A DNA stretch of 64,000 nt from Rhodospirillales bacterium (GTDB lineage: Bacteria; Pseudomonadota; Alphaproteobacteria; Rhodospirillales; Casp-alpha2), in NCBI GenBank assembly GCA_051117645.1, contig JBNPEI010000001.1, forward strand, positions 14,717 through 78,716, written 5' to 3'. The notes under the pieces were generated by a model. It was given only the letters and a program-made list of their open reading frames with translations. It made no database searches and was not told where the DNA came from. Made by a program: the position numbers and the translations under genes. Numbering within the stretch: the stretch's first letter is position 1; each line of letters starts with the position of its first letter. This document shows, piece after piece, positions 13,690 to 52,508 of this stretch.

Positions 13690-13749
13690 CGGCCAGCGTC
13701 ACCCGCCGGCCGCGCCTTGATCATTCGGGCCGCGTCCGCCGGCGCGGGA

Positions 13750-25313: not shown

Positions 25314-25404
<91 letters not shown>

Positions 25405-32303: not shown

Positions 32304-32656
32304 CTTTCACCCCTAAAAAGATACAATTTGGCAATCATGCTCGGTTAGAGATTGCTTGAGGTCAAGGTCAGCATCTCTGATGGCGAATTGAGACTACGAA
32401 CCGCCCATAGACTTAAACCGCAGAGATGTAAGGAGTGCGGATTTTGCTTATACCGACACCGAGGAGCTTTTTACACAGTGTTCCAATGCGCTAAGTACAA
32501 ATCTGATACCAGTTAAAATTTAAGCTGTGCATGAATTGGCCCGTTGTAAAACATCCACCCGGCACTGGATGCGTTGGACTATGTCTGGACGCAGATGAGA
32601 TTTCAGTAATCTGGGCCAACCCTCGAATTGCCTGACAAGCAGTGCAAACGCGTCTC

Positions 32657-33451
32657 TCACACGGTGGGTGGATTCGTACTGACATTTGTGGGGTCCAATC
32701 GCGTAGGGAGCGTGACCTGCCAACCATCGCGGATGATTGCCAGAGCTATCGCGATCGTCGGCCCGAAAACTTCGGGGTTCGGGGGGTTGTCGGTCGCCAA
32801 TCCGACCAGCCTGGGGTGAGGTGTGCCTTCTGTTGTTTCTTTGTCCATAGGCACGCCGAACATCGCGCCGCCACTCATTCCATGTGGATCAGGGGCCGTG
32901 ACCCGCGCGCGGGTTTCGGAGTCGATATTTCGCTTTCTATTGAAAGAGACCCGGACGCGCGCGGTGGTGGTCTCGATGACATTGCAACCGTTAGCGTGCA
33001 ATAGCCCCTTGATTTTCTTCTGATTGTAAACCTTGCGGTTCTTGGTCTCCGGGAAACCGAGGAACTCGACGTACTTGGATGATGCCGTTTGTGACTGGTC
33101 GGCAATCTCGCTCTCCGCAAGTGGAGCATACTTCTGGAAAGCCGCGACTTGTTCCGGCGTGAGCTTCAGGACGGCGACATCGTGCTCTTTGGAACACTGA
33201 AAATCCCCTTCGAGAACTTCCATTTTTGTCGGCCCGTCGAAGTAAAGCGTCGAGGTCTTATTCTCGTCTATGACGTGTTTGGCGGTACAAAGGAATATGT
33301 CGTCGGAAAGGGAAATAAGAACCGCACTTCCGAGGAGCACCGCCTCGCCCTTATCGTTCACGTCGAATAGGGGCGTGACACAATCCTTGAGCCGATCCAC
33401 GGCCTCTCTCATCTCGGAAACAAGAATTTCACCGGCGCTTTTGATCGTCAT
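32657..33451 (-). CDS. trypsin-like (S1/Trypsin_2-type) serine protease
   Basis: 264-aa ORF with a candidate catalytic triad in the canonical order: His in CTAKHV, Asp in HDVAVLKL, Ser in GMSGGAMF. No signal peptide is visible. It lies 61 nt downstream of the pAgo gene. Confidence 0.7.
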   Translation of the reverse strand: MTIKSAGEILVSEMREAVDRLKDCVTPLFDVNDKGEAVLLGSAVLISLSDDIFLCTAKHVIDENKTSTLYFDGPTKMEVLEGDFQCSKEHDVAVLKLTPEQVAAFQKYAPLAESEIADQSQTASSKYVEFLGFPETKNRKVYNQKKIKGLLHANGCNVIETTTARVRVSFNRKRNIDSETRARVTAPDPHGMSGGAMFGVPMDKETTEGTPHPRLVGLATDNPPNPEVFGPTIAIALAIIRDGWQVTLPTRLDPTNVSTNPPTV

Positions 33452-33512
33452 TTATGGCACCTAATGCTTTGAGCATTAATCATTCGTTTCCGACCGTCAT
33501 CTCGTATTTGGC

Positions 33513-34925
33513 CTACATGAAACTGCGAAAATCGAAGACTTTGTCGACGATATTTGGATTTTGCTGAAGGATATCGGCGAACGTTTTCGAGTAAACCAGT
33601 GTCACCGGCAGCTTCTTGTAGAGCGTATTGTTGTTCCAATCCATTTTGGTCAATCCGACAATACCGGAGCAGGTGTCATGCCAACCCCCTACGCCCGTAA
33701 ATCGCCGGATCAAAAGTGGAGACGGAGTGGGCTTTAAAGCGCCTTCTTTATAGACGTTGTATCTCGGGTTATTCACATGAACGCCCTGAACACTCCCTTG
33801 CGTCCACAACAACGCCTCGTTGGTATCGAGTGGCAAATAAGTTCCGCGCTCCACCGGATAGTTGAACGGCTGCGGTGGCGACTTGGTATCGAACCGAATC
33901 GCCTTCCAGTTCACATCTTTGACTATCTGTACAAGCTCGACCTCGGTATCGGCACGAAAACTATCGACAGCCCCAAGAATTTCCTCCTCTCTGAAGGGTG
34001 TATTTTTATGGACCGTAATCTTCTTGGGAACACGCCCGAAATGGGCGCGCTGATAAATCTCCAAACTCCGTGAGAGAACGGATTGCATCTCGTAATACGA
34101 AAGATACGGATTCTTTCGATTATCCTGGGTAAACTCCTTAGCGTCGTAAGCCACGAACTGGAATCCGGTTCCGTCAGGATCGAAAACCTGACTACAACAG
34201 GTGCTGTATAGCGTGCCTTCCTCACCTGCTTTCATGGCATAGCTGATACCGATAAAGGCCTCGTCCTTTCCGAGACCGGTCAGTTTCCACGGGACGCCTC
34301 CCGCCTTGGCGTACAGGGCGACACTCAGCCCCCACATCACATTTGCTCGGCAATTTCGTTCGAAACTCTGTTGACGAACGATCTGGATCGGGATGCCCAC
34401 GGGAGCGCAATAAGCCTTCAAATAGTCATGGAAATCGAAGTTATCTCCTTCGAAGCAAGAGGCCCAACTACGAGGTAGATGGATGAGCGCGACATCGAAA
34501 CTACTACGTTGCTGGTTGAGCTGCGTGATGCACTGAAATAGCGCTTCTGCCAATTTCTCCTTCGCGCCTGTTTCGGCATGTCGGTCTAGTTCGTCCGGAA
34601 ACGAACGAACCAGTCCTTCGTCCAATTGGGCAATCGGAATCCTGAACAGCTGTTCGAAACCGGGATATTCTGGATAGTAGTTTTTCGCTTCCTTTGGTTG
34701 CGCGGTCCGCTCCAACTCGGAGACTAGTGCTTTGAGTTTGGGTATATCGCGGGAAGGAGCGAGCACCGCCAATCGCATGTAGTTCGGCGATCCGAACCGT
34801 CGACCATACGGCCCGTTCTGGATCAACCCGATAAGGGGATGCTTATGCCTACAGTCACCGTCGAACAGAAGCTCTGGTTCGGGAAGTAGCGAGTATCCGC
34901 ATAATTCGCTGCTCGGTACGCTCAT
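33513..34925 (-). CDS. short prokaryotic Argonaute (MID-PIWI only)
   Basis: 470-aa ORF with PIWI-like sequence character (GGVPWKL...FIGISY...ITVHKN) and no N/PAZ region. It overlaps the upstream SIR2-APAZ gene by 4 nt, which is the typical SPARSA arrangement. Confidence 0.85.
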
Positions 34926-36688
34926 GACACCAACCTCCTCGCAAAGGCGGTACGTGATCCGACACGGAAAGTCGGATTTTCGGCATCATCGCCCTCGTCA
35001 AAGGGTTTGAGTGAGACTTCCGTATTGCGTTCGTCGGTTCCAAGAGCGATCCTTACCCAGGCATCTATTATGGCGTTGTACTTCGCGTTCAGCCGGTCTC
35101 CTCGTCGTTCGTCCAGAAAATCGGTCGCAATGCGTTTGGCATGTATCGGCCATATCCAGATATCGGGATCGAGTTGGAGCCAAATGTTGTCGCCCCTTAC
35201 ATCTATCGAAACCCTTAGAGCCTCCGCCCAGCCGATCTGGCGACTCTCCGGAAATTTTTCAGAGACTTCCGTGAATAGGCCACGAATGTCACCGTGAAGC
35301 CTTCCGACAACGTCGAACAAGGGTTGGTAGCACCCCTGATCCTGGGCATGAGCGTCTGCAATCAAGAACGATCCTGAACGGTTTGTCCTGCATAAAAGAG
35401 GCTTGTCCCTCGCCAATGCTTTAGCGAGAGCTTCTTCGACAAACCCTTTTAGGTACAGGTTTCCGGGAGCGGACAGGTCGTCGGGCAATTCAGTCGAATC
35501 AATACGCTCGGGTTTCCGGTCGAAAGCGTCATCGATCGATGCGCGTTGCCCCCAACACAATACACTGTCGGATTTGGCTAGAACTAATTCGCCTTCGGAG
35601 GCAACACGGGCTCGACGGATTTCACTCCATTCGCACGAAGGAGAAAACGAGAGCGAAAGACATCGCTCCGGCATGTCGATTATGGGTAGTGCGTTCAGTC
35701 GAACGATCGGATTGGCCCGACCGACCGAAGGTAGTGGAATTGACGCCGAGGTGATTTCGAGCTTCCTGACCTTAGAGTCCAACTCCGGAGACTTGCTCTC
35801 TAAGTTTCGCCAAAATCTGAGAAGCAAAGAGTCGAATGTCTCGATCTGAACGTGTTCGGCTGTTACGCCTTTCTCTCGGGCTTTTTCGAGTAGATCGGTG
35901 ACTTCCGGGTGTAGATCGGCCCCCTTGATCTCCGTCCAGAAGAGACCGTGCGGAAACGGATTGGTCGTTTCGAGGACCTCGTAAAATAGTTTCATCACGC
36001 TTGCGTCGCGACCGCTATAACCCGCGACGACAAAGCCCAAGCGGGTACCAGCATTTACGAGGCAAGCCGAAAGATCCCGATTCTGCGTCGACAAATCGGC
36101 TCGAAGGTTTTTAATGCTGTCGTACCTGAAGTCGCCGTGCAGCTTGCAGTAAAGAGGAAACTCTTCGTTATCGAGGGCCGCGCTGGCGTTGTGTGCTCCT
36201 TCGAGATGGTAGGCGCTCAAAGACTGACCGGAAACTTCTGCGATCGCCTTCTCGACGACGCTATCGAAGTTTGTCGTAAACACGATCCGGCTGTCTTTTG
36301 ACGCCAGTAACGCGCCCAAGACGCGGTGACCGATTGCTAGAGACAAGTTTTCCTCAGAGAGCTTTGCCTTGATGTAGCGACGTTGCTTCTCCTTGTCGTC
36401 GCCAAAAATCTTTTCGAAATAGGCTGGGTATTCGTCATCCTCATAGGGTGCAGGAAATCCTCTGGACTGCATAAAGGCCTGAATACGTTCTCTGACTGCG
36501 CTGTTCTGAATATCTTGCCTGGATATGTCCTGGGTTTCTTCTCGGCAATAATATTGCCGTTTGAGATCCCAAAGCATGTCGTTTGCGGTCGGCAAATCGG
36601 CAGAACGGGACGCACCTGCACCGAGGAACCAAGCAAAATTCTGAGGCCGCGCGCAAAACAGTCCTGTGAGTTCGGCCTGATCCATCAA
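34922..36688 (-). CDS. SIR2-APAZ protein (NADase effector partner of short pAgo)
   Basis: 588-aa ORF. The N-terminus has SIR2 motifs ([30 protein letters not shown]). The ~300-aa C-terminal region is consistent with APAZ. Confidence 0.85.
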
Positions 36689-37248
36689 CTCTCTCTTACT
36701 GACCTACTATACCTGTGTGTCGATACTTTTCTGCTTTCGACGCAATTACCATGGGACGATCGACCCGACGATTTCCCTTTCTCGCCGTTAGCGTCGCTTC
36801 TCGCCCCGGAAATGGTCCCGCATGAAGCTCCGGATTGCAGCCAGGCTACTGTGCGTTGAACCAGTACATCGAGCGGTAGACCGGTTTTTCCTTTCAGCGC
36901 ACATTCCCAAACCGTAAGAACTCTCCAATCCTGCTCCCGAAGCCGTTTGATATTCCGGGCGTCTCGCTTCTTGTTGGCTGCAAATTTCTCGGCCCAGAAT
37001 TCCTCTCGCGTCTTCGGCTTGGTTGCCCGATAACAATCGTGGGCGTGCCAATAACAACCGTGAACGAATATGACTGCGCTGTAGCGAGGAAAAACGAGGT
37101 CCGGACTACCGGGCAGTTTTCTATCGTGCAGTCGATATCTCAACCCGACCTTATGCAGGGCAGAACGCAAGGTCATTTCAGCGTCGGTGTTCTTCTGCCC
37201 GACACTGGCCATGATTTTTGATCGCGTTTCCCTGTCTACTGTATCCAT
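36685..37248 (-). CDS. vsr: very-short-patch-repair (T:G mismatch) endonuclease
   Basis: 187-aa ORF that aligns by eye with E. coli Vsr over ~150 aa (TRSKIMASV, LPGSPDLVFPRYSAVIFVHGCYWH, FW..K...N..RD, WRVLTVWEC). It has an extra ~35-aa C-terminal tail. Confidence 0.9.
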   Translation of the reverse strand: MDTVDRETRSKIMASVGQKNTDAEMTLRSALHKVGLRYRLHDRKLPGSPDLVFPRYSAVIFVHGCYWHAHDCYRATKPKTREEFWAEKFAANKKRDARNIKRLREQDWRVLTVWECALKGKTGLPLDVLVQRTVAWLQSGASCGTISGARSDANGEKGKSSGRSSHGNCVESRKVSTHRYSRSVRES

Positions 37249-38010
37249 TCAAACTCGTTCGATTATCTTCGTCGTTATCAGTGCCTCCAAATGGCGGTGA
37301 AGTTTTACCGGGATAGAACCTCCTTGGATCAAAACCCCGGCCTCCATATTCATCTCCATAGCGTAACCGGTCAGGTTTGCACTGGAGAGAAAGCACATTC
37401 GCTCGTCGGCAACAGCGACCTTCGCATGTACTTTGCCTCCGACAAATCCGTCGGCTTTGTCGCCCCAGAAATAGATCCGGGCTGACGGAAGGACTTTCTT
37501 CATATGTCCGATCCCGTCGATGGATACCCCGCCCCCGTGCGCGTCACTCGACTCCAGCAGCATTGATATTTCCACACCACGCTCAGAAGCCGCTGCCAAG
37601 GCATTCATGATCGCCGCGACGTCGTAAGCGACGAAACTCGTCAAAAAGAACCGTTCACGTGCGACATCGATGACCTGCAACAAAGCCTGTTCCGTTTTTC
37701 GCATGGCGACGAGTTCGCTTGAAGGCCCGGTCCAAACGAGTTCGATATCCGACTCGGCTTTGGCGTGCTTGTAGGCGTAGGCAGCGCCGGTCAGCATCGC
37801 CGCCAATTCGTCTGATGGCAGAGGACAATTTCTCCAGCTTTCGACGAGTTTGCGTAGCCGGTCCCGTGCGACCGGCGCGATAGCCCAGGAACTCAACGAT
37901 GCGGAAGACGCGGGATTGTCGACCTTGCGTAATTGATTGGCCAGTTGCTCGATTTTCTCGGGCGGGGTGTTAGCTGTAATTTCGGTGATCGAGGCGAGCA
38001 GCTTGTCCAT
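37249..38010 (-). CDS. drmC: DISARM phospholipase-D-domain protein
   Basis: 253-aa ORF with a single HKD motif (HAKVAVADERMCFLSSAN), located directly downstream of drmB. Confidence 0.8.
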   Translation of the reverse strand: MDKLLASITEITANTPPEKIEQLANQLRKVDNPASSASLSSWAIAPVARDRLRKLVESWRNCPLPSDELAAMLTGAAYAYKHAKAESDIELVWTGPSSELVAMRKTEQALLQVIDVARERFFLTSFVAYDVAAIMNALAAASERGVEISMLLESSDAHGGGVSIDGIGHMKKVLPSARIYFWGDKADGFVGGKVHAKVAVADERMCFLSSANLTGYAMEMNMEAGVLIQGGSIPVKLHRHLEALITTKIIERV

Positions 38011-38019
38011 GCGTCCTCC

Positions 38020-39870
38020 TCACGAAAAAAAGGCCGCATCGGCGACTTCCAGAGTTGATATTGCCAACGCCCGATCGATATAACGATTACCGCGTTCGCA
38101 AGATGTCTCGGAAACGAACGAACAGGCATGGCATGCCGCAGCATGCAGGGACCTGTCTTTATCCGGATCGTGCTCGGCGCAGAGAGGATCGGACGAGCAA
38201 ATACCGGCACGCGACAAAGCCTGTTTTAAGAGCCGCCCGAGATTTTCGGGCTTCCCGAGATCGACCAGCCCTCCGAGCGTGCCGTCAGAATCGGCGGCGG
38301 CCGTGTAGATAAGAATTCCCGCTTGCGGGCGCTCCCCGTTTATATCGGCATAAATGCGTTCCCGAATACTGGCGGCGTTGTATCCACATTCCAGTGCCAA
38401 TTCTCTGATCAACAAATGCGCAATCGTATGAAGGAGCACGTACCGGGAACCGGGATATCCTTCATCCGGATCTAGCTTTCGCGAATTACGCCACCCTTTG
38501 TGACCTGCGATTAGTTGGCCGTCTCTCGCTTTGACGCTATCCCGTTTTTCCCATTCGTTCAGTGCCTCCTCGCTGAAACGAATGAATATTCCCTCACCAT
38601 GCACCTGACCGGCGGGAACCCATTCCGGCGGGCTCGCGGAAAGCCCTGCCATCGGTGGGCGCTCGTCGGGATCTGCGGTCTCTTCCGGGGCTTCGACGCG
38701 GGTAAAGCCCAACAGAGCATTTACTTCTCTCAATCTTTCGAGAAGCGAAACACCCGATATTCGATCCTCGAGACCTTTCGGAACGTCGACAGACTTACTC
38801 AGAAAATGCGGCCAGTCCGTCGGAGGATGCGGGTCGGTCAACACGTCCCACTCCGGACCTTTGATATCCGACTCTGTAACTTCTGAGCTGGTTTCGCCGC
38901 TGCGTATCGACTGGATCGCGTTCCATACCGCCGAGGCGGAATGTTTGTCGATCCCAGGCAATGCACCGGACTTCTTCAGGGTTTTGATAACGAGCGCAAC
39001 CTCTGCTTCGGATTCCACATCCTCAAAGTAATCCCAACCGTCCCGGACGAGCTGAGCCACCGGATCACGGGAGAGCGGGATCGCCAGTGCGGACAACGTT
39101 ATCGGGAACCAACTGTTCGTCGCCCCCAACAAAACCGCGCGTGCTTGTTCGTCACATTCTGTCTCGTACCGATCAAGGTGCGGATGGCGTCCCCTACAGC
39201 GGGGAAGATTTTCTTTGCCGGATTTGCCGAACGCATGAGCCATGTTGCGCGAGGCGCCACATTCGTCGCATTTCACCCAGAGGTTTTCGGTCTGCAGCGA
39301 AGCGCCACTCTCGAAAAATCGTAGCGTCCCTTTGCAGCCTGAAGGACCGCTATGAACGAAGTAATCCCATGGGAAATCATCGAGATGTCCATTCCGGCAG
39401 GCCAGCAGGAAACGTGCGGGAACAGCATCCGCGTCCTTGGCTGGTAGGTTGCCTTTCGAACCCTTACATCCTTTGTGAACGAAGCGGGTGTTTTCGGGCC
39501 GGTAGCGATCTTCCTTGATCTCGAAAAGCCCGAGATCGCATTCCGACAACAGACCGCATTTGACGCAGCGCAGCCATCGAGGGAATGGCCTCACCGGAAC
39601 GCCGATCAAGGCTTCTGCCGAATAAGCCTCGATATCCTCGCTTTGCTGGAAAGGCGGTACACGCAGACTTTCGACCTGCGGACCGAGAACTTTGCGAACC
39701 GCCGCCAATAAACGGGCCTCTTCGATCGGCAGGCAACGATCTTTCTCCCAACGATCGTTGCCCATCGTAATAACCGAAAGGCTAGGCAAATCGATCAAGG
39801 CACCGGGACCGTAGGTCCACAGTATCTGGCTCGGCCTCACATCTCCGACAGGGGATTTATCACTGGTCAT
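38020..39870 (-). CDS. drmB: DISARM DUF1998-domain protein
   Basis: 616-aa ORF with DUF1998 hallmarks (LLHTIAHLLIRE, DSDGTLGGLV, C-terminal Cys cluster CSSDPLC...AACHACSFVSETSCERGN). Confidence 0.85.
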   Translation of the reverse strand: MTSDKSPVGDVRPSQILWTYGPGALIDLPSLSVITMGNDRWEKDRCLPIEEARLLAAVRKVLGPQVESLRVPPFQQSEDIEAYSAEALIGVPVRPFPRWLRCVKCGLLSECDLGLFEIKEDRYRPENTRFVHKGCKGSKGNLPAKDADAVPARFLLACRNGHLDDFPWDYFVHSGPSGCKGTLRFFESGASLQTENLWVKCDECGASRNMAHAFGKSGKENLPRCRGRHPHLDRYETECDEQARAVLLGATNSWFPITLSALAIPLSRDPVAQLVRDGWDYFEDVESEAEVALVIKTLKKSGALPGIDKHSASAVWNAIQSIRSGETSSEVTESDIKGPEWDVLTDPHPPTDWPHFLSKSVDVPKGLEDRISGVSLLERLREVNALLGFTRVEAPEETADPDERPPMAGLSASPPEWVPAGQVHGEGIFIRFSEEALNEWEKRDSVKARDGQLIAGHKGWRNSRKLDPDEGYPGSRYVLLHTIAHLLIRELALECGYNAASIRERIYADINGERPQAGILIYTAAADSDGTLGGLVDLGKPENLGRLLKQALSRAGICSSDPLCAEHDPDKDRSLHAAACHACSFVSETSCERGNRYIDRALAISTLEVADAAFFS

Positions 39871-42800
39871 GTGTCCCCCTCTCCGCTGTCACTGCTTGTC
39901 GGCCGGGGTGTCCATGCCGGACCTTCCGATCCGATCCTTGCGGCATTCATGATAAGCCGGACGCCCGGTTCGACCTCCCGCATCGACATCGGGACGGTAA
40001 AATTGTCCCAAGCCTGTATGCCGGGCCGTTTCAGAAGAGCGACCATCGTATCTTTGCCCTTGCCCTTCTTTTCGTAAGCGAGTGTGCGCCCCCCTTTGGA
40101 TGCCTCTTTCGCCCATTCGTCGACACGCTCTTTGAGCTCGTCCGTGGCGAGGGTTTTGATTCCGGATTGTTGGGTGATTCCCCAGGCCCTCGCCGAAAGC
40201 AAATCGACAGCATCGACGACTTCTTTCTTTCCGGTACTGTCTAGCGCACCTGCTCCGAGGTTCGGGTTGAACGGATCGTTTTCCAAACGGAGGACGCTGA
40301 GCATGGTGCCCGTCAATCCACGGTCCATTGCACGGGGGGAAAACGGAGTGACGCTTTGCGCTTCGACATGTTTGTAAAAAGTCGCGTGATAATGCTCGAA
40401 CGTTTCGTAGTGCGATAAATCTCTCGGCCTCGCCCATGTCAGAACGGTGCAAACCAGACCGGGAAACGAACGACCGACGCGGCTGGTCGCCTGAATGTAC
40501 TCAGCCGTTCCCTTCGGTTGCCCGTTGACCACCATCAGCCCGAGCCGGTTCACATCGACACCGACCGAAAGCATGTTGGTGGCGAGCACGACATCGACTG
40601 AGCGGGCGTCGCCCTCATCCCACTTCGTAACGTATTTGCCAGCTTCGACGTCAAACTCCGCTTTGAATTTGACTTCGAGCTGATCGAGATATTTCGGGAT
40701 ATCGCGATTGGACACGCGCGACGTCAATTCACGCACGTTGTTCACGCTGCGCTGGGCAAGCCCCGGACGGTCGACCAGACTCATCTGGACACGATAACAA
40801 CGCGTTTGTACATCGTCCTCTGCAAGCCGCTTCATCCCGCCAAGTTCGCGCAACGAATTGAAGTAGCCGACAGTCGTCAGATACGGATCGGCAGCTTGGC
40901 CGAAGCGATCGAATAGAGCCTGAGCGGCAGTCAGAAATGCGGTGTATACGCGAATCAACATGGCCGGACGCGAACTGCCGGGAGAGCAAACGCCCATATA
41001 ACGCCGTCCCGGAATTGCCTCTATCGGCCTCTGGACCGAGAAGAAGTTGTCGCTGACATCAAGACCGCTCGGCGGAAAGACCGATACCCGACGCATGAAG
41101 ACGTTGTTGACCTGCTCCTTGGCTTTCCTCACGGTCGCGGTCGACGCGATGATTTTCGGCTTGATCGCGGCCCCTTCAATCGCCCATGTGGAGAGTTCGT
41201 CGACGGCAGTCTCGTATAGCCCGACCATCGTTCCGAGCGGCCCGCTGATAAGATGGAACTCGTCCTGAATGATCAGATCTGGCGGACGTATCGGCTTTAT
41301 TTTTTGGGCATTTGTCGACGGCAACCCGCCACGCGCAGGATGCTTTCCTGAACAACTCGCCTCAGGCCATAGGAGGCCGTGACGCGGACATTCGGAGGTC
41401 GCACGACCGAATAGAGTGCGGGTTTCACCCCGCCACGCCATCATTGCGAACTTGTCGACAGTGGCGATCATCATCGATGGCGGGCGGTGATAGATTTCTT
41501 CGTCGACGACTACGACCGGCAATCCGGGATGGGCATGCTTGCTTGACCGGCCCTTCGAGAATTCGCAGCGCCCCTTTTTGTCACCGCAATAGATTTTCGT
41601 ACGTAGCGAATCCTTATCGACTTCTATGTCTCGCTTGTCGGAGACCTCGGAGCCGCACCAAGGACAACTCGTAAGCTGTGCGGGTGACGTCCCACCGGCA
41701 TCGAACTTGTCGGGATCACGTATTCTCTGAATCGCACTATGGCTGTCAGCAGTCGTGCTGGGTGTCACCTTGTTGCCGACCCAAAGGCCGATCGTGAAAG
41801 GGGTAGTCCCGAGGCGGTCGTCATCGTTCGCAGCGGCTTCCTGACGTTCCAGCTCCATCGCACAGATTAATGTAGTCGCCCGCTGGAATTGCTGAAGTGT
41901 GAGAAGGCGAAGCGTATAGCGCATGATGACGGTCAAACCACGCCGTCCGTCATACCCACCGAGGTCGCCCTGCATGCGGCGGATAGCCATCGCGAATGCC
42001 GCAACGCCTAAATAGGCTTCGGTCTTACCACCGCCTGTCGGAAACCAGAGTAAGTCGGCGAAAGCTTCGACCGGTTTGGTCCGGTCCACGTGATGCGGGT
42101 CTGCAAGAGACGGAAGCGACAACAAGACGAAGGCGAGCTGGAAGGGACGCCACGACCTGTTCTTGCGGATATCCAGATCGGCAATATCGACCTTCTCACC
42201 GCGACGGCGGGAAAGCGCATAAATGCTATGAATGCGCTGCTTGGCCATGACCTGGTTCGCGAACCGGAATGCGTCCAAAGCAAGATCGTTACCGGTATCC
42301 GCGAGAAGATTTACCCCCTCGACAAGACGCTCGTGGATAAGACGGCATTTGGCCACCGCCTCTTTGGCCTCGTCGTCGAAACCGGAGACATCCGATCCAA
42401 TGCGCGCTGCCTGATCTCCGATCCACGCTGCATAATCATCGGCAAGCACCGTCAGGGCGGCCACGAGCTTGTCGCGGTCCATAGCGGCAAGGTCGCTCAT
42501 ATCGAGAAAGCCCTCATCGACCATGCGCCGCATTGCGGGACGGTCCTCGGGGTTCAATCCGGGGGTTTCCGTTACCGGGACCTCGTATTGCGGCATAATG
42601 ACAGTGCGGATTTCCGATGCCGTTTCGGTTTCACCGGCCTCGGTTTTCGCATGAACGGCTACACCGTGCCCGGTCGCGAATTCGACCTGACGGCGATAAA
42701 TCATTTCGAGCATGTCACGCTCCGGATCGTCTGCATGAAGGCTCATGGCGAGCCGACGCCGGAAGACGGACTTATCCGCTGCTCCCTCCACAGCCCGAAC

Positions 42801-43925: not shown

Positions 43926-46900
43926 CCTTTAGCTCTGTAGAAGGCGTCGTCCCCCACACCCTGTTGTTCCAAATCATCGTCGGCAATTAGATCCGCTAAG
44001 GCCGTATCCAATGTAGAATTGTCAAATCCGGTTCCTTCGAGGATCGCTTGTTTTGGAAGCCATACTCCTCGCTTCTCCTCAATCCACTCATACACCCGTT
44101 CAACAGGTTCAACTGGCATAGGCTTCGGCTTAGGCCTGGGTGATGTGGTTTCGGCCCCGAACAAGTCCGCCTGTAACGACTGTTTCTTGCGGGTCGAAGG
44201 CTTTGTCTCGGATGATGTACTCTGCTTTGCCTTCCCTTTCTTGGCAGCCTTCGAGTTGCCCGTGCTTTGTTCATCATTGAATCGTTCGCGGTTTAATGCT
44301 GAAAGCCGACATAAAATTTCTATACGAGCAGGTTCGGAGATCGTGAAGCGAACACGATCATTTTCAGGAAGATAGTCAACTTCGTGAAAACCGTGGGCGA
44401 GAGGGAGGTCTTCCCAACCGTATGCTCGAGCAACCATCTCATCTATCTGGCGATGTAGGTCACGTAACTCCACGATACGTGCATCAGCTTCTTCTTGATC
44501 ATGAAAACGATTGTAAAATTTTGTTAGCCCGATTTTTTCATCACGCATAACTTCAGCACGAAGCGAATGGCAATGCTCCCCCAAGCGCTCTAAGTCAGAG
44601 CGATCATTGTTTAAGGGAAACGGAAATGTCTCAAATACATCTGTGGGCGTGTACCTCATATCTGACTTCAGCTGAGAAGAGTGCTTCCAAGCATACGCCA
44701 CATGAATCGAAGACTGCATCAACGAAAAGTCTTCATAACGATCAGAAGCGATTATTATGACCTGATCGGAATAAACTGAGTCGTTATCTACGAAAACAAA
44801 AGCTCCTGTTTTGCTAACCCTAGCGCAAACCAAAACCTTCTTCATTGGCCCGGTTTCCCGACCATTTTTTTGTTGTTTCTGTAAGAAAACCTGCCCTCTG
44901 CCTATTGCAGTGTAGAGGCCAGGGCGGTTATTCCAATGTAACCACCACATAGACATGATGTTACGGTAAGAATGTTGTTTAGATTTCTCCATTCGTTCTG
45001 GATAAACATTCTCTTTCAGATGATCATATGGCTCTACGTATTGCCTTGCCTTCTCTTCTGACCAATCCCAGAAATTTATGACCCATCGGCTCGGGTGTTG
45101 CACAGGATCACTATTCAAGTCTTTTCCATTCAAATAAGGAAATATCACTTCCTTGTTTTTTGGATTTCTAGAAACCATGTCTCTGGCGTCTTCTTCGGAC
45201 AGGACAAATCCCATACCCAAGACATAAGAGCCGATAAAAGACCTTCCGGCGTTTGCTTTTAATTGCTGTGGCGTCCATTCTTCCTGGTCTGAAAGAAAGG
45301 CCGATATATAGGCAACATGACGCCCTGTGAGTATGCACTCGCCTTTCCATTCACCTTTTCGAATGTGAACTCGGCTCGTTACCACTGCGGCTTTACCTGG
45401 CCAAACCTCATTTGGATAGGCTGCATATATCGTAGCGCTAAAGTCTCCGAGTAATCTTTCTAGTGCTGCCTGTCGTGTTTCACCTTCAGATATTGAGTTT
45501 GTGGCCAACAAGCCAAAACACGCCTTACTAGCAAGCAGATTGAAAGATCGGTTAAAAAAGTGAGCGACGAGGTCTGTCCTACCCTCTGCCCCAGGCGTTA
45601 CATTGTGGACCAAGTATTCCCTGTATCGTGATCCCATAGCGGTGGAAATGCGTGTCCCCCCTAAGAATGGCGGATTGCCGACGATCGCATTGAACCCACT
45701 ATCATCTCGGCAAAACACCTCTGGAAACTCCAGTGGCCAATGGAAAGCCCGCTTTGATGGCTTACCTTGGAAATGATCAGAACCAAGGCCCTTGCGTGCC
45801 CGATGATTCAAGGCACTGACCTTAGAATCCTCCCCATCCACGGCCCCACCTGCTTCGATTGAGAGAGATGTTGTATCAACATTGCCACCGTTCGCGGCCA
45901 GAACCTCGCCGACGAACGCATTGGCAATTAACTCCGGTAGGTCTAGCGTTTGTCTCGCCTGTTCATCCAAGCTGGCCATTACCTCGACATCCCGAATGTC
46001 CCGGATCGGCCTGCTGCGGAGTTCTGCACGTAGCTTAATCGCCTGGTCGACTGCCTGATCAATCTTCTGTCCGAAGAGTTTCTTGGAACTTCCTTTACCT
46101 GGTCTCATTTCGAGATAGTGGAGCTGTTCTAGATTATGGATTCCAAGCAGGGCGTCGCCGCTTCTAAGGTTATGGTCCAAGAATCCAAAAGGTCGCCCCT
46201 TGGCAAGCGTCACCAACCAAATCGACAGCTTGGCCAATTCAACCGCCAGCGGATTTATGTCCACGCCATACAGACAACGCTCTGCAATCAAACGTCTTGC
46301 TGTCAGCGATCTTTCTTCAGCGTCGTTTCGGAGGGGCTCATACCCATTGACCTTCTCGACGACGACACCTTCTGTAGTGATAGCATTTCCCTTTTTCTCG
46401 GCCTCTTCCCAGGCTTCGACCAAGCGCTCTGACAGCGAGCGGCAAGCTTGCACGAGGAAAGCACCGGACCCCATCGCCGGGTCACAGATTTTTAAGTCAA
46501 GCAACTCGGCAGGTGATTTGAGGGACCATTCCTCGCGCGGCTTTCCCTCCGCTGGCCCGAGATAAACAACGGGTTCCAAAGTCTCTTTGACGATGGCCTC
46601 GGTCAAAGATTTGGGCGTGTAGTGTGTCCCCGTCTCCCGACGATCCGCTCCGGTCGTGACCATGAAAGTATTTTCGGGGTAGACGAGGGGATACCCCCAA
46701 CTATCCATTCGCAAAAAATGGAAGTACGGCTTGATGCGATCCCGCAGCACTTGATCGCCATGACATGCCGTCAGAAGCTTGTCTGAAGCGGCTTCATCGA
46801 CTTTTTTTGTTAGATCGTTTTTCACGCGGCTCGAAGAACTTCCGGTGCGCTCTTCCAATAAAGCCGATAGCGCCTTGTCTCCCTCCCCATCAGCCGCTTC

Positions 46901-48277
46901 TAGCTCGTCGAGAGTAACCCACGGTTTCTTGGATTTCTTGGCCGCGTCGAGGTCCAACGTGACTTCCTTTGTGCGGACCACAGTTCGCTCGAGCAAGCCC
47001 TCATAGACATAGCCGATCTGCTCCACATCAAGCGCCCGATAGGAGAGCGTCCTCCCCTGAAAAAGCTGTACGGCTTCGAGTAACAGCAGCACCGTTCTAT
47101 TATCGATCGGCAAAGGCTTTGCTGGATCGGATTTCCAGTCCGATGCCTTGCCACGTCCTTCGAGAAACGGAAAACGATCCGGATCGAACAACGAGCCCCC
47201 GAGAGCGGGTAACCGCATCGTTTCATGGTCGATACCGCCATAGACGGCCCGGAAGATCGCTAGCAGTCTTGACCATGCGTCTTGGCGGCGTTCCAGGATT
47301 TCTTCGGACTCAGCGCGAAGCTGCATTCGCAGCGTCGATACCGCGTAGTTGGCCTCGTAACGCTCGTCCCCCATCAAAAGCAATCCACGTTCTTCCGCAG
47401 AAAGCAGGAAGACGATACGCATCATGACCGTCAACGCGGCTTCGTAGAGCTCCGATGGCTCTACACCTTCGAGAAGTTCTCGATTGAGATCGACATCGGC
47501 GCGATCGAGACGTTGCACGAGAACTTCGACGGCCCGACGAACCTGCTCGCCAAGCGCATCGGTAACTTCGTCTTGTAACTTCAGGGACTCCTCGAAAAGA
47601 GCCGGAAGCTGTTCACTGGGATCGACAAAGAACCGCCGGATACCGAGAAGATTGACGAAGGCCTGTAAGGTGAGCGGCTCTTGACCCCACAGCCTCGCGT
47701 ACCAACTCGCGAAGGTCGCAGTCGCCCCGACAGGAGCATCAATCAATGTCCATCGTTCGCCATTGGTCACCAGTCCAAGCCGAACGTTTTGAGCACGACA
47801 TAACTCGACCATCCGCTCCAACGGCGTGGTCGCCCAACCATCACCTTTGACGGGTTCATCTAAAACAACATCTGCCGGATAGATGCGGATCAATAGAAGC
47901 GGGCAATCGTCTTTTTGTTCGTCGACCACTGCGTAGTCAGGTCGGAGGGTTATGCCATGCTCCGCGGCTTTATAGTCCAGCTTCCCGTCGAGCTTGGCGA
48001 GTGATTTGAGAACATCCCCTTCACCGTCTTCGTCTAACTCGAGAGCACGCTTCAAAACGAGATCGACCCAAGCTCCATGAAAAGCTGGTAGCTGCGGGTC
48101 TTCGAGATCGATCGCTTCCCGCCACTCGTCATATGCCTGACGAACCGACCGCCGCACCAGAGGATCGATCTGCTCCAAACCTTGAGGAAAAGCCTGATCC
48201 AAGACAGGCTCGGCCAGAAACGGTCCCGATACGTCGACGAGTGAGAGCCATTCGCTATGTTTGCTCGCCCCGGTCAT
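43922..48277 (-). CDS. drmMI: DISARM N6-adenine DNA methyltransferase (Eco57I/type IIG-like)
   Basis: 1451-aa ORF with SAM-binding motif I (DPAMGSGAFLV) and catalytic motif IV (VGNPPFLGG). Confidence 0.85.
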   Translation of the reverse strand: MTGASKHSEWLSLVDVSGPFLAEPVLDQAFPQGLEQIDPLVRRSVRQAYDEWREAIDLEDPQLPAFHGAWVDLVLKRALELDEDGEGDVLKSLAKLDGKLDYKAAEHGITLRPDYAVVDEQKDDCPLLLIRIYPADVVLDEPVKGDGWATTPLERMVELCRAQNVRLGLVTNGERWTLIDAPVGATATFASWYARLWGQEPLTLQAFVNLLGIRRFFVDPSEQLPALFEESLKLQDEVTDALGEQVRRAVEVLVQRLDRADVDLNRELLEGVEPSELYEAALTVMMRIVFLLSAEERGLLLMGDERYEANYAVSTLRMQLRAESEEILERRQDAWSRLLAIFRAVYGGIDHETMRLPALGGSLFDPDRFPFLEGRGKASDWKSDPAKPLPIDNRTVLLLLEAVQLFQGRTLSYRALDVEQIGYVYEGLLERTVVRTKEVTLDLDAAKKSKKPWVTLDELEAADGEGDKALSALLEERTGSSSSRVKNDLTKKVDEAASDKLLTACHGDQVLRDRIKPYFHFLRMDSWGYPLVYPENTFMVTTGADRRETGTHYTPKSLTEAIVKETLEPVVYLGPAEGKPREEWSLKSPAELLDLKICDPAMGSGAFLVQACRSLSERLVEAWEEAEKKGNAITTEGVVVEKVNGYEPLRNDAEERSLTARRLIAERCLYGVDINPLAVELAKLSIWLVTLAKGRPFGFLDHNLRSGDALLGIHNLEQLHYLEMRPGKGSSKKLFGQKIDQAVDQAIKLRAELRSRPIRDIRDVEVMASLDEQARQTLDLPELIANAFVGEVLAANGGNVDTTSLSIEAGGAVDGEDSKVSALNHRARKGLGSDHFQGKPSKRAFHWPLEFPEVFCRDDSGFNAIVGNPPFLGGTRISTAMGSRYREYLVHNVTPGAEGRTDLVAHFFNRSFNLLASKACFGLLATNSISEGETRQAALERLLGDFSATIYAAYPNEVWPGKAAVVTSRVHIRKGEWKGECILTGRHVAYISAFLSDQEEWTPQQLKANAGRSFIGSYVLGMGFVLSEEDARDMVSRNPKNKEVIFPYLNGKDLNSDPVQHPSRWVINFWDWSEEKARQYVEPYDHLKENVYPERMEKSKQHSYRNIMSMWWLHWNNRPGLYTAIGRGQVFLQKQQKNGRETGPMKKVLVCARVSKTGAFVFVDNDSVYSDQVIIIASDRYEDFSLMQSSIHVAYAWKHSSQLKSDMRYTPTDVFETFPFPLNNDRSDLERLGEHCHSLRAEVMRDEKIGLTKFYNRFHDQEEADARIVELRDLHRQIDEMVARAYGWEDLPLAHGFHEVDYLPENDRVRFTISEPARIEILCRLSALNRERFNDEQSTGNSKAAKKGKAKQSTSSETKPSTRKKQSLQADLFGAETTSPRPKPKPMPVEPVERVYEWIEEKRGVWLPKQAILEGTGFDNSTLDTALADLIADDDLEQQGVGDDAFYRAKG

Positions 48278-51200
48278 GGCCGCCCTCCTTCCTTGAGGGA
48301 TTCAGGCACGAAAAAGATCACCGCGACGGGGAATGTGCGTGCTGTGAAATCCTGATAACGCTGATCGATAGCTTCGAGCTCTTGAGCCTTCTCTTCCGGT
48401 ATGCGGGCCAAGCGGGCTTTGAGTGCCTCTGTATCCCGCCTCACCTGCATTCGTTCGTCTTCGGAGAACAAGGCAAGCTGCTCCGGTTCACGCTCTTTTT
48501 TGAGTTCCTGTTCGATCGTGCGGACAAGCTCGTCCAGCACAGAAGCAATGTTGTCGGCTTCCTGCCGTTTACGGTTTTCGAGCGTGTTTTGCAGGGTGCG
48601 AAGACGTTCGTTCGAACGCGCTTCCAAGGCGCGGTGGATGGCGTCTTCGTTCTTCTCGAATCTCTCTGCGAGATCACCAAAAAGACTCTCGTTGGCTTCG
48701 AACGAGGCTCCTTCTTCAAACCACTGATTTACCTGGTTCACCCGTGCCTCGCGGCTGAAGCCTCCGTCCTTCAGAAAGCCGCCAGATACCGTAAGTTCTT
48801 CGTGTAGCCGATGATGCGTTCCTCCGGTCACGACCAAGCGAGATACAACTGCGACCGCTGGTGTATCCAAAAAATTCTCGGCGACACTCCGGACGTCGAC
48901 ACGGTGCAATTTTTTCGTATCGTCCTGCGCCCAAACTTCGGCGCGCATCAAACGCAAACACATTTGGACAAGACGATGGTTCAAATGGATCAAAACGACG
49001 TCGTCACGATTCTTCGCCACCTCGTGGTCGAATGTTATAGGGCGTTGTTTTTGAGTGTGCGGATGGCGTAGACCTTCCAAGCAACGCGCCCATGAACCCG
49101 TAAGGGCGGGCATCTCGAAGACAGTGCCACTTGGTGCACCATCCAACTCGACCGGCTCGAGGCGTGCTTTCTCGGCGAGCGCCAAACCTGTCTTGACCGC
49201 TTCGCATATGCGATCGGGCGTCAGATGAAAGTCTTTCTGGGTTTCCTGAAGCCTCTCGTGAAGCCGGGAAATTCGTTCTTGAAGTTGCCGTTCGGCCCGA
49301 ACGAAACGTCTGGCCTTTGCCGCCCTGGCCTCGGCCTCTCTGGTATCGAGATCGCGGCGCGTCCCTTCGATCAATCCCGCCATCTGCGGGGCTATTACCG
49401 GGTTGACGCTTCCCATATCCGCGCGCATCGCTTCGAGTTTCGTAAGTGCGCGGATGATATCGTCCTTATGCCCCCCCAATTTGTCGCTCTCGGCCTCACC
49501 GCCTTCGACAGGATGCCATATCAGGACTTCTTTTTGCCTTTGGCCATGACGATCGATCCGGCCATTGCGCTGCTCCATGACGTTCGGATTGTATGGGATT
49601 TCGATGTGGATGAGACAGTTACAATAATTCTGTAAGTCGATCCCTTCCGATGCGGCATCGGTGGCGAGAAGAATCCGTATCGACGAGTCCTTTGGATTGG
49701 TCTGGAAAGCGGCTTTTACAGGCTCCCGCTCTTCGTTGGTCATTCCTCCATGAATTACACCGAGCCTATCCCCGCCATACCCGCGAGAAGCGAGAATCTC
49801 GTGAAGCCATTGGTGGGTCGTTCGGTACTCGGTGAATAGGATTACCCGACGATCGTTCCACTCGCCTTCGGGTTTGAGATTGGCCTCTATCCATTCGACT
49901 ATCGCATTGGCTTTCGAATCCATGCGGTGGCTGGCCTTCTCAGCCCAATCCCGCATTTCATTGAGGAGCCTTCTTTCGTCACCGGTCAATGGAGCGGCAC
50001 GTCTGGTGGCGGCTTCTACAGCCTCCGACTGGGCCGCTTCGAACTGTCTGTCGTCGGCATAATCCTCCTCGGCCTTGAGGATGGCTTTTCGAAGAATGCG
50101 ATCCGAAAACGCATCCGGTTCATCTTTCACCTTCTCAGTCGTGAGAGTTTCGAAATGCTTTTCAAGGGTCGTCGCAAAGCTCGCCGGTGACGAAAACAAC
50201 CGCTTTTTGAGAAGGCTATTTACGAATTTCGTTCCGGTGGAACCACTATCTCGACTGGTCTCCTCACGGCTCCGGCAATAAGCGTCGAGCTTTTTGTGAA
50301 TTTCCCGTTCTTCCGCAGTGTACGAAATGGAGAGGGGTTGCAAACTCCGTTTCGGATAAATCGGCTGCCCGTCACTGTCGACAAGATCGGTCTTTAATCG
50401 TCGAACCATAACCTGCGATAGCTGCTTCTCGTCGGGCAGAATATTTCGCGAGAAGCGCTGGTCGTCGAGCAATTCGAGTAGAGACGTAAAAGACTCCGTG
50501 TAGCCGTTATGCGGCGTTGCCGTAAGAAAGAGCCGATGCTGGAAATGCGGGGAGATCGACCTTATTAGACGCGTTCGCTGGCTTTCGAGAGCATAGTGGG
50601 CCGATCCCGCCGGAGCCACGTTGTGGGCCTCGTCGACAACGAGCACATCGAACTTTCGGGGATAGCTGGCACGCACCGGGAGAACGTCGCGCAATGCCCT
50701 TAAAGGCTCTCCTGATTTCAGCCAATCTACTGACGCGATCAATCGCGGAAAGGAAGTCCATGGGTTTGCATGAATTCCGCGATTACGGCGGAGCTCCTTG
50801 ATGTAATCAGTGTTGACGATTTTGAATTCGAGCCCGAATTTTTCGAGCATTTCGGTCCGCCACTTTTCCTGCAATGAGGCCGGGCAGATGATAAATACGG
50901 AACGAGCGCGATGTCTTAGGAGCAGTTCCTGGATTACCAATCCTGCTTCGATTGTCTTACCGAGACCGACATCATCAGCGATCAACAGGTTCGCTCGCGC
51001 CATATCGATGGCCCGAACGAGAGGATCGAGTTGGAAGTCTTCAATGCTTACGCCGCTGCGGAATGGCGCTTGCAGAAAATTTCGATCGGCGTTCGTCGCA
51101 GCTCCCCAGCGAACGGCATCCAGAAACGCTTCTAGCTCTCTATTGTCATCCTGCCCCGTTATAGACGGGAGCCCTGCTTTCTCGATGATGTGAGCACCCG

Positions 51201-51426
51201 GTTCGATCTCCCAAATGACTTCGATTTGCTCGCCCAGCGCATCTTCGTCGATTGACGAAATGGTCACGCAATGCTGCACCGCTTCCAAACCTCGATTTCC
51301 TTCGGATGCCTGGACGTCCGCGACTACCCATTGCCGCCTTCTGACCTCGACGAGCTGTCCCGCTTCTGGCGTCGCCTTTACTTGGTGGAGTTCAGCGGCC
51401 TCGGTTGAAGGCATCGAATTCGTCAT
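48274..51426 (-). CDS. drmD: DISARM SNF2-family helicase
   Basis: 1050-aa ORF with SNF2 motifs (LIADDVGLGKTIEAG, VVDEAHN, LFLTATPHNG, LLATDAASEGIDLQ, YNPNVMEQRNGRIDRHGQ). Confidence 0.85.
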   Translation of the reverse strand: MTNSMPSTEAAELHQVKATPEAGQLVEVRRRQWVVADVQASEGNRGLEAVQHCVTISSIDEDALGEQIEVIWEIEPGAHIIEKAGLPSITGQDDNRELEAFLDAVRWGAATNADRNFLQAPFRSGVSIEDFQLDPLVRAIDMARANLLIADDVGLGKTIEAGLVIQELLLRHRARSVFIICPASLQEKWRTEMLEKFGLEFKIVNTDYIKELRRNRGIHANPWTSFPRLIASVDWLKSGEPLRALRDVLPVRASYPRKFDVLVVDEAHNVAPAGSAHYALESQRTRLIRSISPHFQHRLFLTATPHNGYTESFTSLLELLDDQRFSRNILPDEKQLSQVMVRRLKTDLVDSDGQPIYPKRSLQPLSISYTAEEREIHKKLDAYCRSREETSRDSGSTGTKFVNSLLKKRLFSSPASFATTLEKHFETLTTEKVKDEPDAFSDRILRKAILKAEEDYADDRQFEAAQSEAVEAATRRAAPLTGDERRLLNEMRDWAEKASHRMDSKANAIVEWIEANLKPEGEWNDRRVILFTEYRTTHQWLHEILASRGYGGDRLGVIHGGMTNEEREPVKAAFQTNPKDSSIRILLATDAASEGIDLQNYCNCLIHIEIPYNPNVMEQRNGRIDRHGQRQKEVLIWHPVEGGEAESDKLGGHKDDIIRALTKLEAMRADMGSVNPVIAPQMAGLIEGTRRDLDTREAEARAAKARRFVRAERQLQERISRLHERLQETQKDFHLTPDRICEAVKTGLALAEKARLEPVELDGAPSGTVFEMPALTGSWARCLEGLRHPHTQKQRPITFDHEVAKNRDDVVLIHLNHRLVQMCLRLMRAEVWAQDDTKKLHRVDVRSVAENFLDTPAVAVVSRLVVTGGTHHRLHEELTVSGGFLKDGGFSREARVNQVNQWFEEGASFEANESLFGDLAERFEKNEDAIHRALEARSNERLRTLQNTLENRKRQEADNIASVLDELVRTIEQELKKEREPEQLALFSEDERMQVRRDTEALKARLARIPEEKAQELEAIDQRYQDFTARTFPVAVIFFVPESLKEGGRP

Positions 51427-52508
51427 CAGGCGGCTCGCTCCATTCTTCGTTCGAACTCGTACACGTGCCTGACGATACTTTTACCGATCGCCTCGCCTAG
51501 CTTTACCGGGACAGCATTGCCGATCAGTCTGCCGATCGATTTGCGATATATCGGGGCTCCGGCGGGAACAAATTTATATTTCTTCGGGAAGCTCTGGAGG
51601 ATCGCTCCTTCCCGCAACGAAATCGCACGATCTTGTTCCGGATGGCCGAATCGCCCATTTCCGAATCCATAGTACTGCGTAGTCATGGTCGGAGCGGTTT
51701 CGTCCCATGACATCCTGCCGTAAACTCCAGGATAGGTCTTCCCTGAACTTTTTTTATGGCAAGCAGCAATTAGGCTCTTATCCCAATCTCGCCATGTACC
51801 TCCTGGTTTTGACGCACGGATACGTCTTAGGTTTAGCGGTGAGAGTGAGCACGCTTGATGGAGCGGGTCTGCTTCGCAGATCTCACCCGCTTCAATGGGG
51901 GGCAATCTTCCGATTGCATCGAGTACCGTTACATATTCGTCGGGTTTCTTGGTAGGGCTGATTAACTCAATCGGCGCCAACTTGGATGCCAATAGCACCA
52001 ATCGTCGACGCTGCTGCGGGACTCCATAGTCAGCGCAATTCACAACGCTGTACGAAACGTTGTATTTTTCACGATGCAGGATGGCAACGAACTCTTCGAA
52101 CACTTGCTGAGTCTCAAGACGGGGGACATTCTCCATCGTTACCAAATGCGGTTGGGTTTGATGTATTAGATGACCAAAGGTTTCCAGTAAATGCCATCGT
52201 TCGTCATCAGGGCTCGACCATCCTTGACTATAAGTCGAGAATGGCTGACACGGAGCACATCCTGCCAGCAACGTATAATCAGCATCTTCAAAGGCTCGTT
52301 CAAATTCGGACGCGTCCACGTCCTCAACCGCTTTTTGTATGAATGTGCCGTTATTGTTTCTGGTGAACGGAAACTCACATGCCGGATCGACGTCTACGCC
52401 AAAAACAACGTTGATCCCTGCTGTCTCCAAGCCATGCGTAAGCCCACCTGCTCCGCAAAACAGGTCAATTGCCTTAATACTTCTATGTGGTCTTGGCTTT
52501 CGTGCCAT
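51426..52508 (-). CDS. drmMII: DNA (cytosine-5)-methyltransferase (DISARM drmMII-type)
   Basis: 360-aa ORF with C5-MTase motifs I (DLFCGAGG), IV (GCAPCQPFS), VI (MENVPRL), VIII (QQRRRL) and X (GNAVP). Its stop shares 1 nt with the drmD start (TGATG). Confidence 0.9.
   Translation of the reverse strand: MARKPRPHRSIKAIDLFCGAGGLTHGLETAGINVVFGVDVDPACEFPFTRNNNGTFIQKAVEDVDASEFERAFEDADYTLLAGCAPCQPFSTYSQGWSSPDDERWHLLETFGHLIHQTQPHLVTMENVPRLETQQVFEEFVAILHREKYNVSYSVVNCADYGVPQQRRRLVLLASKLAPIELISPTKKPDEYVTVLDAIGRLPPIEAGEICEADPLHQACSLSPLNLRRIRASKPGGTWRDWDKSLIAACHKKSSGKTYPGVYGRMSWDETAPTMTTQYYGFGNGRFGHPEQDRAISLREGAILQSFPKKYKFVPAGAPIYRKSIGRLIGNAVPVKLGEAIGKSIVRHVYEFERRMERAA

Follow-up and report, generated by a model that had tools for sequence, protein, structure and literature searches.

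A SPARSA cassette docked on the stop codon of a DISARM-vsr gene string: a probable composite defence operon in a Rhodospirillales bacterium

INTRODUCTION

Accessory defence genes inside BREX or Type I loci are a familiar case, and the usual partner of the very-short-patch-repair endonuclease Vsr is a C5 methylase, as in dcm-vsr. Defence systems are usually seen as independent modules of genomic islands. The SPARSA (short prokaryotic Argonaute, SIR2-APAZ) system of Geobacter sulfurreducens, GsSir2/Ago, pairs a SIR2-APAZ protein with a short prokaryotic Argonaute (pAgo; PDB 8in8, 8jl0); small 5'-AU RNAs co-purify with it, and its activation takes an RNA guide together with a DNA target, which can be single-stranded (Zaremba et al.). 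Class 1 DISARM (a restriction-modification-associated defence island system) with an added drmMII has also been described, and the available passages on the system characterised in Serratia sp. SCBI list drmD, drmMI, drmA, drmB and drmC together with drmMII (Aparicio-Maldonado et al., bioRxiv 10.1101/2021.12.28.474362; Ofir et al. 2018). Here we analyse a 64,000-nt stretch of DNA (the window) from Rhodospirillales bacterium (GCA_051117645.1, contig JBNPEI010000001.1, positions 14,717 to 78,716 of the forward strand), in which a DISARM gene set, vsr and a SPARSA cassette follow one another on the minus strand.

All modules of this locus belong, as regular members, to known families; what is new is the DISARM-SPARSA arrangement. 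The window pair resembles GsSir2/Ago in its composition, its 4-nt gene overlap and its end-to-end protein similarity, but it has no upstream spacer of its own and starts within the stop codon of the last gene of another system. The DISARM part has the same domain content as the Serratia system but adds a terminal vsr abutting drmC, and SPARSA joined by a stop/start overlap, neither of which those passages mention. In the literature searched, no description was found of a DISARM and SPARSA operon fusion, of a SPARSA-restriction fusion or of a conserved TGATG junction. We consider it likely that the locus is a composite defence operon, a DISARM-vsr backbone on which a promoter-less SPARSA cassette is docked, co-expressed as one package; a first-line system that tells DNA apart by its methylation and an abortive-infection system would then share one conserved operon.

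RESULTS AND DISCUSSION

The gene string and its junctions

Ten co-directional genes occupy positions 32657-52508 of the minus strand, in the order drmMII-drmD-drmMI-drmA-drmB-drmC-vsr-SIR2-APAZ-pAgo-peptidase. Gene identities were taken from Pfam, PADLOC, NCBIfam and PDB sequence matches, junctions were read directly, and junction statistics were compiled from 169 related loci fetched from genomes and metagenomes (designated by L numbers). An initial annotation, made from the letters and their open reading frames (ORFs), had described these ten genes as DISARM, Vsr, SPARSA and a protease with almost no spacers between them, and both the ORF coordinates and strands and the family matches agree with it. 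As it had stated, drmMII and drmD have 1 nt in common (TGATG), drmD/drmMI and drmA/drmB each overlap by 4 nt (ATGA), a 9-nt gap separates drmB from drmC, drmC and vsr abut (TGAATG), SIR2-APAZ and pAgo overlap by 4 nt, and pAgo and the peptidase gene lie 61 nt apart. The 9-nt gap is the longest spacer between drmMII and pAgo, and the only long spacer is the 251 nt upstream of drmMII (52509-52759, minus strand), again as first described. Two of its junctions had to be amended. The drmMI/drmA overlap is 4 nt long but runs through a TTG start (TTGA), ATGA being found at the same place in relatives. The overlap of vsr with SIR2-APAZ is real but most likely 1 nt (TGATG) rather than 4, because the longer version assumes a TTG start, whereas the ATG one codon later gives the 587-aa product of the NCBI annotation and of almost all homologues.

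Nearly all overlaps in the string are generic features of DISARM and SPARSA operons and nothing special to this locus. A 4-nt overlap joins drmA to drmB in 46 of 50 loci and SIR2-APAZ to pAgo in 70 of 84, and drmC and vsr abut in 14 of 23. The 4-nt drmMI/drmA overlap occurs in 11 of the 28 loci in which both genes were located, most of the others having a gap of 1-3 kb, which in L175, L178 and L179 is an inserted gene. The unusual junction is the one between vsr and SIR2-APAZ.

The vsr/SIR2-APAZ junction recurs in other lineages

The TGATG at this docking junction lies at positions 36685-36689 of the minus strand. The gene order drmB-drmC-vsr-SIR2-APAZ-pAgo and the same 1-nt overlap are found in four other distinct metagenomic sequences, whose SIR2-APAZ proteins are 87% (L001), 71% (L005), 70% (L097/L176) and 66% (L086) identical to that of the window; the proteins most similar to the window SIR2-APAZ lie on metagenomic contigs. 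A look-up anchored on DrmMI retrieved L176, the longer contig behind L097, and L177, an identical sequence from a second sample. In both, the full nine-gene run from drmMII to pAgo is present, its junctions follow the pattern seen in the window and the encoded proteins are 62-79% identical to those of the window; the string there adjoins plasmid or integrative and conjugative element genes (ArdC, KlcB, PhdYeFM). The initial annotation had proposed a search for the drmC-vsr-SIR2-APAZ junction in other genomes, and had named uniqueness to this strain as a finding that would speak against a fused unit; the juxtaposition is not unique, and the whole string is present in L176/L177. The DISARM-vsr-SPARSA string is an inherited unit across distantly related environmental bacteria rather than a one-off neighbourhood.

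DISARM-docked SIR2-APAZ sequences group with L003 in one clade of a neighbour-joining tree (91/100 bootstrap), and the next branch is L088, docked on hsdM (95/100). The DISARM-docked SPARSA clade has a single origin. In L003, a SPARSA pair that is 88% identical stands behind a 275-nt spacer and an unrelated gene, without DISARM, and it shares DNA homology with the docked loci from just 2-10 nt ahead of the ATG onwards. The boundary of the cassette is therefore the start codon, and the cassette has no promoter region of its own.

On the other side of the junction, residues 1-148 of the window Vsr form the Vsr domain and residues 149-187 an unconserved tail that reaches the SIR2-APAZ start codon. 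In the docked loci these vsr tails measure 10-39 codons and are unalignable between lineages, and all of them are open exactly to the ATG of SIR2-APAZ. The joint probability of open tails in four independent lineages, estimated by shuffling, is ~0.005. Vsr is 148-166 aa long in most DISARM loci without SPARSA. An open yet unconserved tail suggests selection for termination at the start codon, hence for coupled expression or translation, and is the best available sequence evidence for a selected coupling.

The SPARSA cassette and the proposed mode of action

SIR2-APAZ, the NADase effector subunit, is encoded at 34922-36687 (minus strand; 587 aa from the ATG; PADLOC Aga_SIR2-PNTD1-PNTD2, E 9e-193), and the short pAgo, the sensor subunit with MID and PIWI domains only, at 33513-34925 (minus strand; PADLOC pAgo_I, E 1.4e-194). 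Residues 12-582 of SIR2-APAZ align to GsSir2 (8in8_B, E 3.9e-140). The NADase pocket residues N142 and D230 of GsSir2 have their counterparts in the motifs TTNFD (N139) and GYSGRD (D227), at columns that do not vary among 31 homologues, and the 470-aa pAgo aligns end to end with the 473-aa GsAgo (8in8_C, E 9e-178). At ~50-60% identity to a characterised system, the pair is predicted to carry out guide-dependent depletion of NAD+.

The backbone is a class 1 DISARM to which the optional C5 methylase is added (drmMII-drmD-drmMI-drmA-drmB-drmC) and which ends in vsr, and the two-gene SPARSA docks on the 3' end of vsr, the stop codon of which overlaps the SIR2-APAZ ATG. Since the docked cassette has no upstream region of its own, SPARSA would be transcribed by read-through from the DISARM promoter or promoters. 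At least part of the translation of SIR2-APAZ would come from ribosomes that finish vsr and then restart, which would tie the levels of SIR2-APAZ and pAgo to DISARM expression. In an infected cell, DISARM would act first on unmethylated invader DNA; SPARSA would then detect invader DNA by means of RNA guides and deplete NAD+, leading to abortive infection. A single promoter, co-transcription, translational coupling, layered action and functional synergy are thus what we infer from the sequence. Of the initial proposal of one coupled unit, the tight packing of DISARM, vsr and SPARSA and the conserved TGATG have held, whereas the peptidase is excluded (see below), most of the overlaps are generic and vsr is part of DISARM rather than a module of its own.

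Scans for promoters and terminators are compatible with one long transcript, without proving it. Sigma-70-like sites are fewer than in shuffled sequence, and none was seen at module boundaries or in the vsr tail by a consensus scan that captures alphaproteobacterial promoters poorly; a single site in the vicinity (37238-37211), located at the 5' end of vsr, occurs at chance frequency. Terminator-like hairpins are likewise at chance frequency, with none at a module boundary, and folding of four junction regions, among them drmB/drmC, the vsr tail and pAgo/peptidase, gave z-scores near zero. The strong internal promoters or terminators that, according to the initial annotation, would have separated the modules were thus not seen at their boundaries by consensus scans and folding. 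The 251-nt spacer upstream of drmMII is the candidate promoter region of the string, with no consensus sigma-70 match found on the minus strand of 52509-52759. At the other end, a weak terminator-like hairpin with a U-tract (32556-32571, minus strand), ~90 nt past the peptidase stop codon, is a candidate end of the transcription unit, such sites occurring at chance level.

A modular rather than obligate partner

Several observations weigh against the composite-operon reading. In a tree of DrmB and DrmC, the SPARSA-bearing operons fall into two well-supported clades with SPARSA-less lineages between them, and each of these clades also holds one SPARSA-less member. The closest DISARM relative (L090/L091, DrmC 85% identical) has no SPARSA and carries an integrase after vsr. 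In L096, the operon closest to L005, two other genes are joined to vsr by 4-nt overlaps at the site of SPARSA, and in L105 a Gabija system (GajA and GajB, 11447-15480) occupies the 3' docking site after a 197-nt gap. Conversely, the L003 cassette exists without DISARM. Both systems also function alone when moved to E. coli, SPARSA in the case of GsSir2/Ago (Zaremba et al.) and DISARM in that of Serratia, according to the passages available (bioRxiv 10.1101/2021.12.28.474362). No DISARM, vsr or peptidase gene was found near SPARSA in any of 80 species-representative loci. Finally, an internal promoter within vsr or its tail is also compatible with the sequence, the sigma-70 scan being weak for alphaproteobacteria. 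The tree pattern indicates that on several occasions the cassette was lost, was replaced or passed from one related DISARM operon to another, and SPARSA is therefore a stable option, a modular rather than an obligate part of these operons.

The two genes at the docking site of L096 (JGI Ga0326597_10001570, 11234-13482) encode proteins of 183 and 566 aa and are also joined to each other by a 4-nt overlap. Pfam, PADLOC, NCBIfam and PDB searches gave no match for either, and the pair is a candidate new defence module.

We regard it as unlikely, though worth weighing, that the packing is incidental, an autonomous SPARSA having landed after vsr with its own promoter in the vsr 3' tail and the overlap being a by-product of genome compaction. 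The unconserved, spacer-like Vsr tail could hold a promoter, ~85% of the 80 SPARSA loci have an upstream spacer of their own, in keeping with an autonomous system in most genomes, the characterised SPARSA works alone, and the site after vsr takes other modules, as L105 and L096 show. Against this, in four independent lineages the frame of the tail runs open right up to the ATG, the junction is kept despite divergence to 66% protein identity, the tail has no sigma-70-like site and the boundary of the cassette is the ATG itself. Docking with coupled expression is the likelier reading.

SPARSA behind other defence operons

The 80 species-representative SPARSA genomes (SIR2-APAZ 44-63% identical) were collected by an alignment-based scan, a single-protein SIR2-APAZ scan having found nothing. 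Linkage to DISARM as a general feature of SPARSA is ruled out by the absence of DISARM from all 80 loci. In 9 of the 80, however, a methylation-based restriction system lies upstream of SPARSA, in the same direction and at most ~120 nt away. The upstream genes are hsdR in L007, L011, L014 and L033, with a decayed hsdR remnant (118 aa) in their relative L013, hsdR-hsdS-hsdM in L024, BsuBI/PstI-type (Type II) enzymes in L010 and L050, and the BREX gene brxL in L023. Docking on hsdM with a 1-nt overlap is repeated in the metagenomic sequences L088 and L089, the HsdM proteins of which are 90% identical. SPARSA is also docked behind Fic, AbiEii and reverse-transcriptase genes. Two further conserved fusions can thus be listed, hsdR-hsdS-hsdM-SIR2-APAZ-pAgo with a 1-nt overlap (L024, L088, L089) and hsdR-SIR2-APAZ with gaps of 2-32 nt. 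A TGATG upstream of stand-alone cassettes as a relic of docking was ruled out, the motif occurring in ~1/14 of non-overlapped loci versus 1/16 expected by chance.

A general association of pAgo with restriction genes is already partly known, because HsdS, methyltransferase and type III restriction orthogroups are among those classified in pAgo neighbourhoods (Ryazansky et al. 2018). With other defence genes in restriction-type operons, the window locus shares the presence of a second, mechanistically unrelated module within the operon of a methylation-based system. Related loci have a similar habit, with an Mrr-type gene between drmMI and drmA, Gabija after vsr, or SPARSA after hsdM, hsdR or brxL. 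The promoter-less SPARSA cassettes behind hsdM, hsdR, Type II and BREX genes suggest that such docking is a general mode of cassette spread and regulation.

The same pattern raises the prospect of mechanistic integration, in which DISARM activity on unmethylated invader DNA yields nucleic acids that load or trigger SPARSA, so that failure or overload of restriction leads to NAD+ depletion. The co-directional relatives directly behind hsdR-hsdS-hsdM, hsdR, Type II and brxL genes and the restriction-type orthogroups of pAgo neighbourhoods speak for it, as do the activation of SPARSA by single-stranded DNA targets and the helicase nature of DrmA. Nonetheless, no experiment or sequence feature connects the DISARM and SPARSA proteins, defence islands often contain restriction-modification genes anyway and the docking count comes without a null expectation, SPARSA docks behind Fic, AbiEii and reverse-transcriptase genes too, and the cassette is easily lost or swapped. 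The characterised SPARSA, moreover, takes RNA guides rather than DNA fragments, so that the suggestion in the initial annotation that DISARM-generated DNA fragments feed pAgo guide acquisition fits poorly; it is no more than conceivable that DISARM connects to SPARSA by exposing single-stranded DNA as its target. All told, we think such integration improbable. The same low credence attaches to its most general form, in which SPARSA would be the second stage of one two-stage immune system, a restriction machine exposing or generating the single-stranded DNA that activates guide-loaded SPARSA, although it would explain the repeated docking of promoter-less cassettes.

For the docked operon that we favour, the locus offers a defined construct for studying co-expression and stoichiometry, any synergy of layered defences, and how toxic effectors are held at low, controlled levels.

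vsr as the terminal gene of DISARM

The vsr gene (36685-37248, minus strand) encodes a protein that matches E. coli Vsr (1cw0, E 4.8e-40) and TIGR00632, the latter at 143 bits against an NCBIfam cut-off of 98. Many SPARSA-less DISARM loci keep its abutment with drmC; vsr is therefore a conserved last gene of this DISARM clade and not a separate fused system. In the alignment with 1cw0, equivalents of D51, H64, C66, W68, H69, H71, C73 and C117 are kept.

Both fully visible strings, those of the window and of L176/L177, contain drmMII as well as vsr, and Vsr most likely repairs the T:G mismatches that would arise by deamination of 5-methylcytosine made by DrmMII. The arrangement resembles E. coli dcm-vsr in that a C5 methylase and a Vsr with a conserved catalytic core belong to one presumed transcription unit, but it differs in that ~14 kb separates the two genes, which stand at the two ends of the DISARM operon, and the Vsr tail has 39 unconserved residues. 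That Vsr is instead a nuclease effector of this DISARM clade, like the Vsr-type domains on YprA-family helicases (ARMADA and some Druantia), is a slim prospect: such domains are predicted effectors among relatives of the DISARM helicase family, many of the loci in this clade have vsr abutting drmC and DrmC is reported, in the passages available, to be dispensable for DISARM defence (bioRxiv 10.1101/2021.12.28.474362), but the similarity to E. coli Vsr is full-length and retains the catalytic, Zn-ligand and intercalating residues, the NCBIfam cut-off is passed and a C5 methylase is present in both complete strings.

The DISARM genes

The window has the drmA-drmB-drmC core triplet preceded by a SNF2 drmD and an N6-adenine methylase drmMI, as defines class 1 DISARM. 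All six genes are on the minus strand. The first, drmMII (51426-52508), encodes a C5 cytosine DNA methyltransferase (Pfam DNA_methylase, E 1.3e-52; PADLOC DrmMII, E 1.1e-90; NCBIfam dcm), and a C5 methylase stands at this position also in L176 and L178. It is followed by drmD (48274-51426), a SNF2-family helicase (Pfam SNF2-rel_dom and Helicase_C; PADLOC DrmD, 1516 bits), and by drmMI (43922-48277), an N6-adenine methyltransferase of the MmeI/Eco57I type (Pfam Eco57I, MmeI_Mtase and MmeI_TRD; PADLOC DrmMI, 1885 bits). The core helicase gene drmA (39867-43925) has a TTG start (Pfam Helicase_C; PADLOC DrmA, 1636 bits), drmB (38020-39870) encodes the MZB domain, formerly DUF1998 (Pfam MZB; PADLOC DrmB, E 1.9e-80), and drmC (37249-38010) encodes a PLD-family nuclease (Pfam PLDc_2; PADLOC DrmC, E 3.7e-106).

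GC content falls to 0.47 within drmMI (window 44001-46000), and DrmMI is the least conserved large DISARM protein across loci (57-70% identity), a combination that would fit exchange of its target-recognition region. In the DISARM loci whose DrmMI is closest to that of the window, a gene for a type IV, modification-dependent nuclease (Mrr_cat/AspBHI_N) lies between drmMI and drmA (L175, 6288-7496; L178, 14354-15571; L179, 4444-5661), and L178 has a second copy of drmMI. A comparable insert may occupy the 1.2 kb that separate drmMI from drmA in L090 and L105. In one DISARM subclade, a 664-aa GHKL-ATPase (HATPase_c_3; PADLOC 'REase_II') is encoded between drmC and vsr (L095, 10682-12676; also L094, L101, L103, L106 and L107).

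The S1 peptidase is a neighbouring island gene

The last gene of the string (32657-33451, minus strand) encodes a stand-alone S1 (trypsin-like) peptidase (Pfam Trypsin_2, E 3.5e-06). The initial annotation had counted it as part of the fused unit. It is, however, absent from every other SPARSA or DISARM locus fetched, L001 having an AbiEi/AbiEii pair after pAgo in its place, and its family consists of ~116 stand-alone proteins of ~265 aa, three homologues of which occur in unrelated mobile-element contexts. A role as SPARSA or DISARM accessory is therefore ruled out, and the peptidase is a neighbouring, unrelated island gene. Its homologues adjoin AbiE, integrases, transposases or a PIN-TPR-GreABC giant protein, and it may serve as a single-gene defence or have a mobile-element function. 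The spacer between pAgo and the peptidase gene contains a 7-bp perfect hairpin or palindrome (TAATGCT-CAA-AGCATTA, 33463-33479) just upstream of the peptidase ribosome-binding site. Lacking a U-tract, it was ruled out as an intrinsic terminator, and it may instead serve as an operator or affect RNA stability.

The surrounding island

GC content drops from ~0.63 to ~0.50 just past a tRNA-Ser(cga) gene (25314-25403), the left edge of the low-GC island, and stays low until the end of the window, which places the region in a horizontally acquired island. The SIR2-APAZ and peptidase products of the region are identical to proteins annotated in a metagenome-assembled Rhodospirillales genome. The checked ORFs adjoining the tRNA gene included no recognisable integrase, and an Rfam search of the window gave the tRNA as its sole match, with no RNA elements found between the modules. 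The co-directional minus-strand run exceeds the ten genes of the string. Downstream of the peptidase, a GmrSD type IV enzyme gene (30309-32303) has the same direction, and upstream of drmMII lie an SNase gene with a C-terminal 'sunset' domain (52760-53485) and a 395-aa ORF without family match (53482-54669). The last two overlap by 4 nt (52760-54669 in all) and may form a separate island unit. No repeats bounding the island or lying at the junctions turned up beyond short ones at chance level, apart from an intergenic array at window positions 56475-56585, in which a 24-nt hairpin-forming repeat (CTTACCCCTGATTTGCGGGGGTCT) occurs in three copies.

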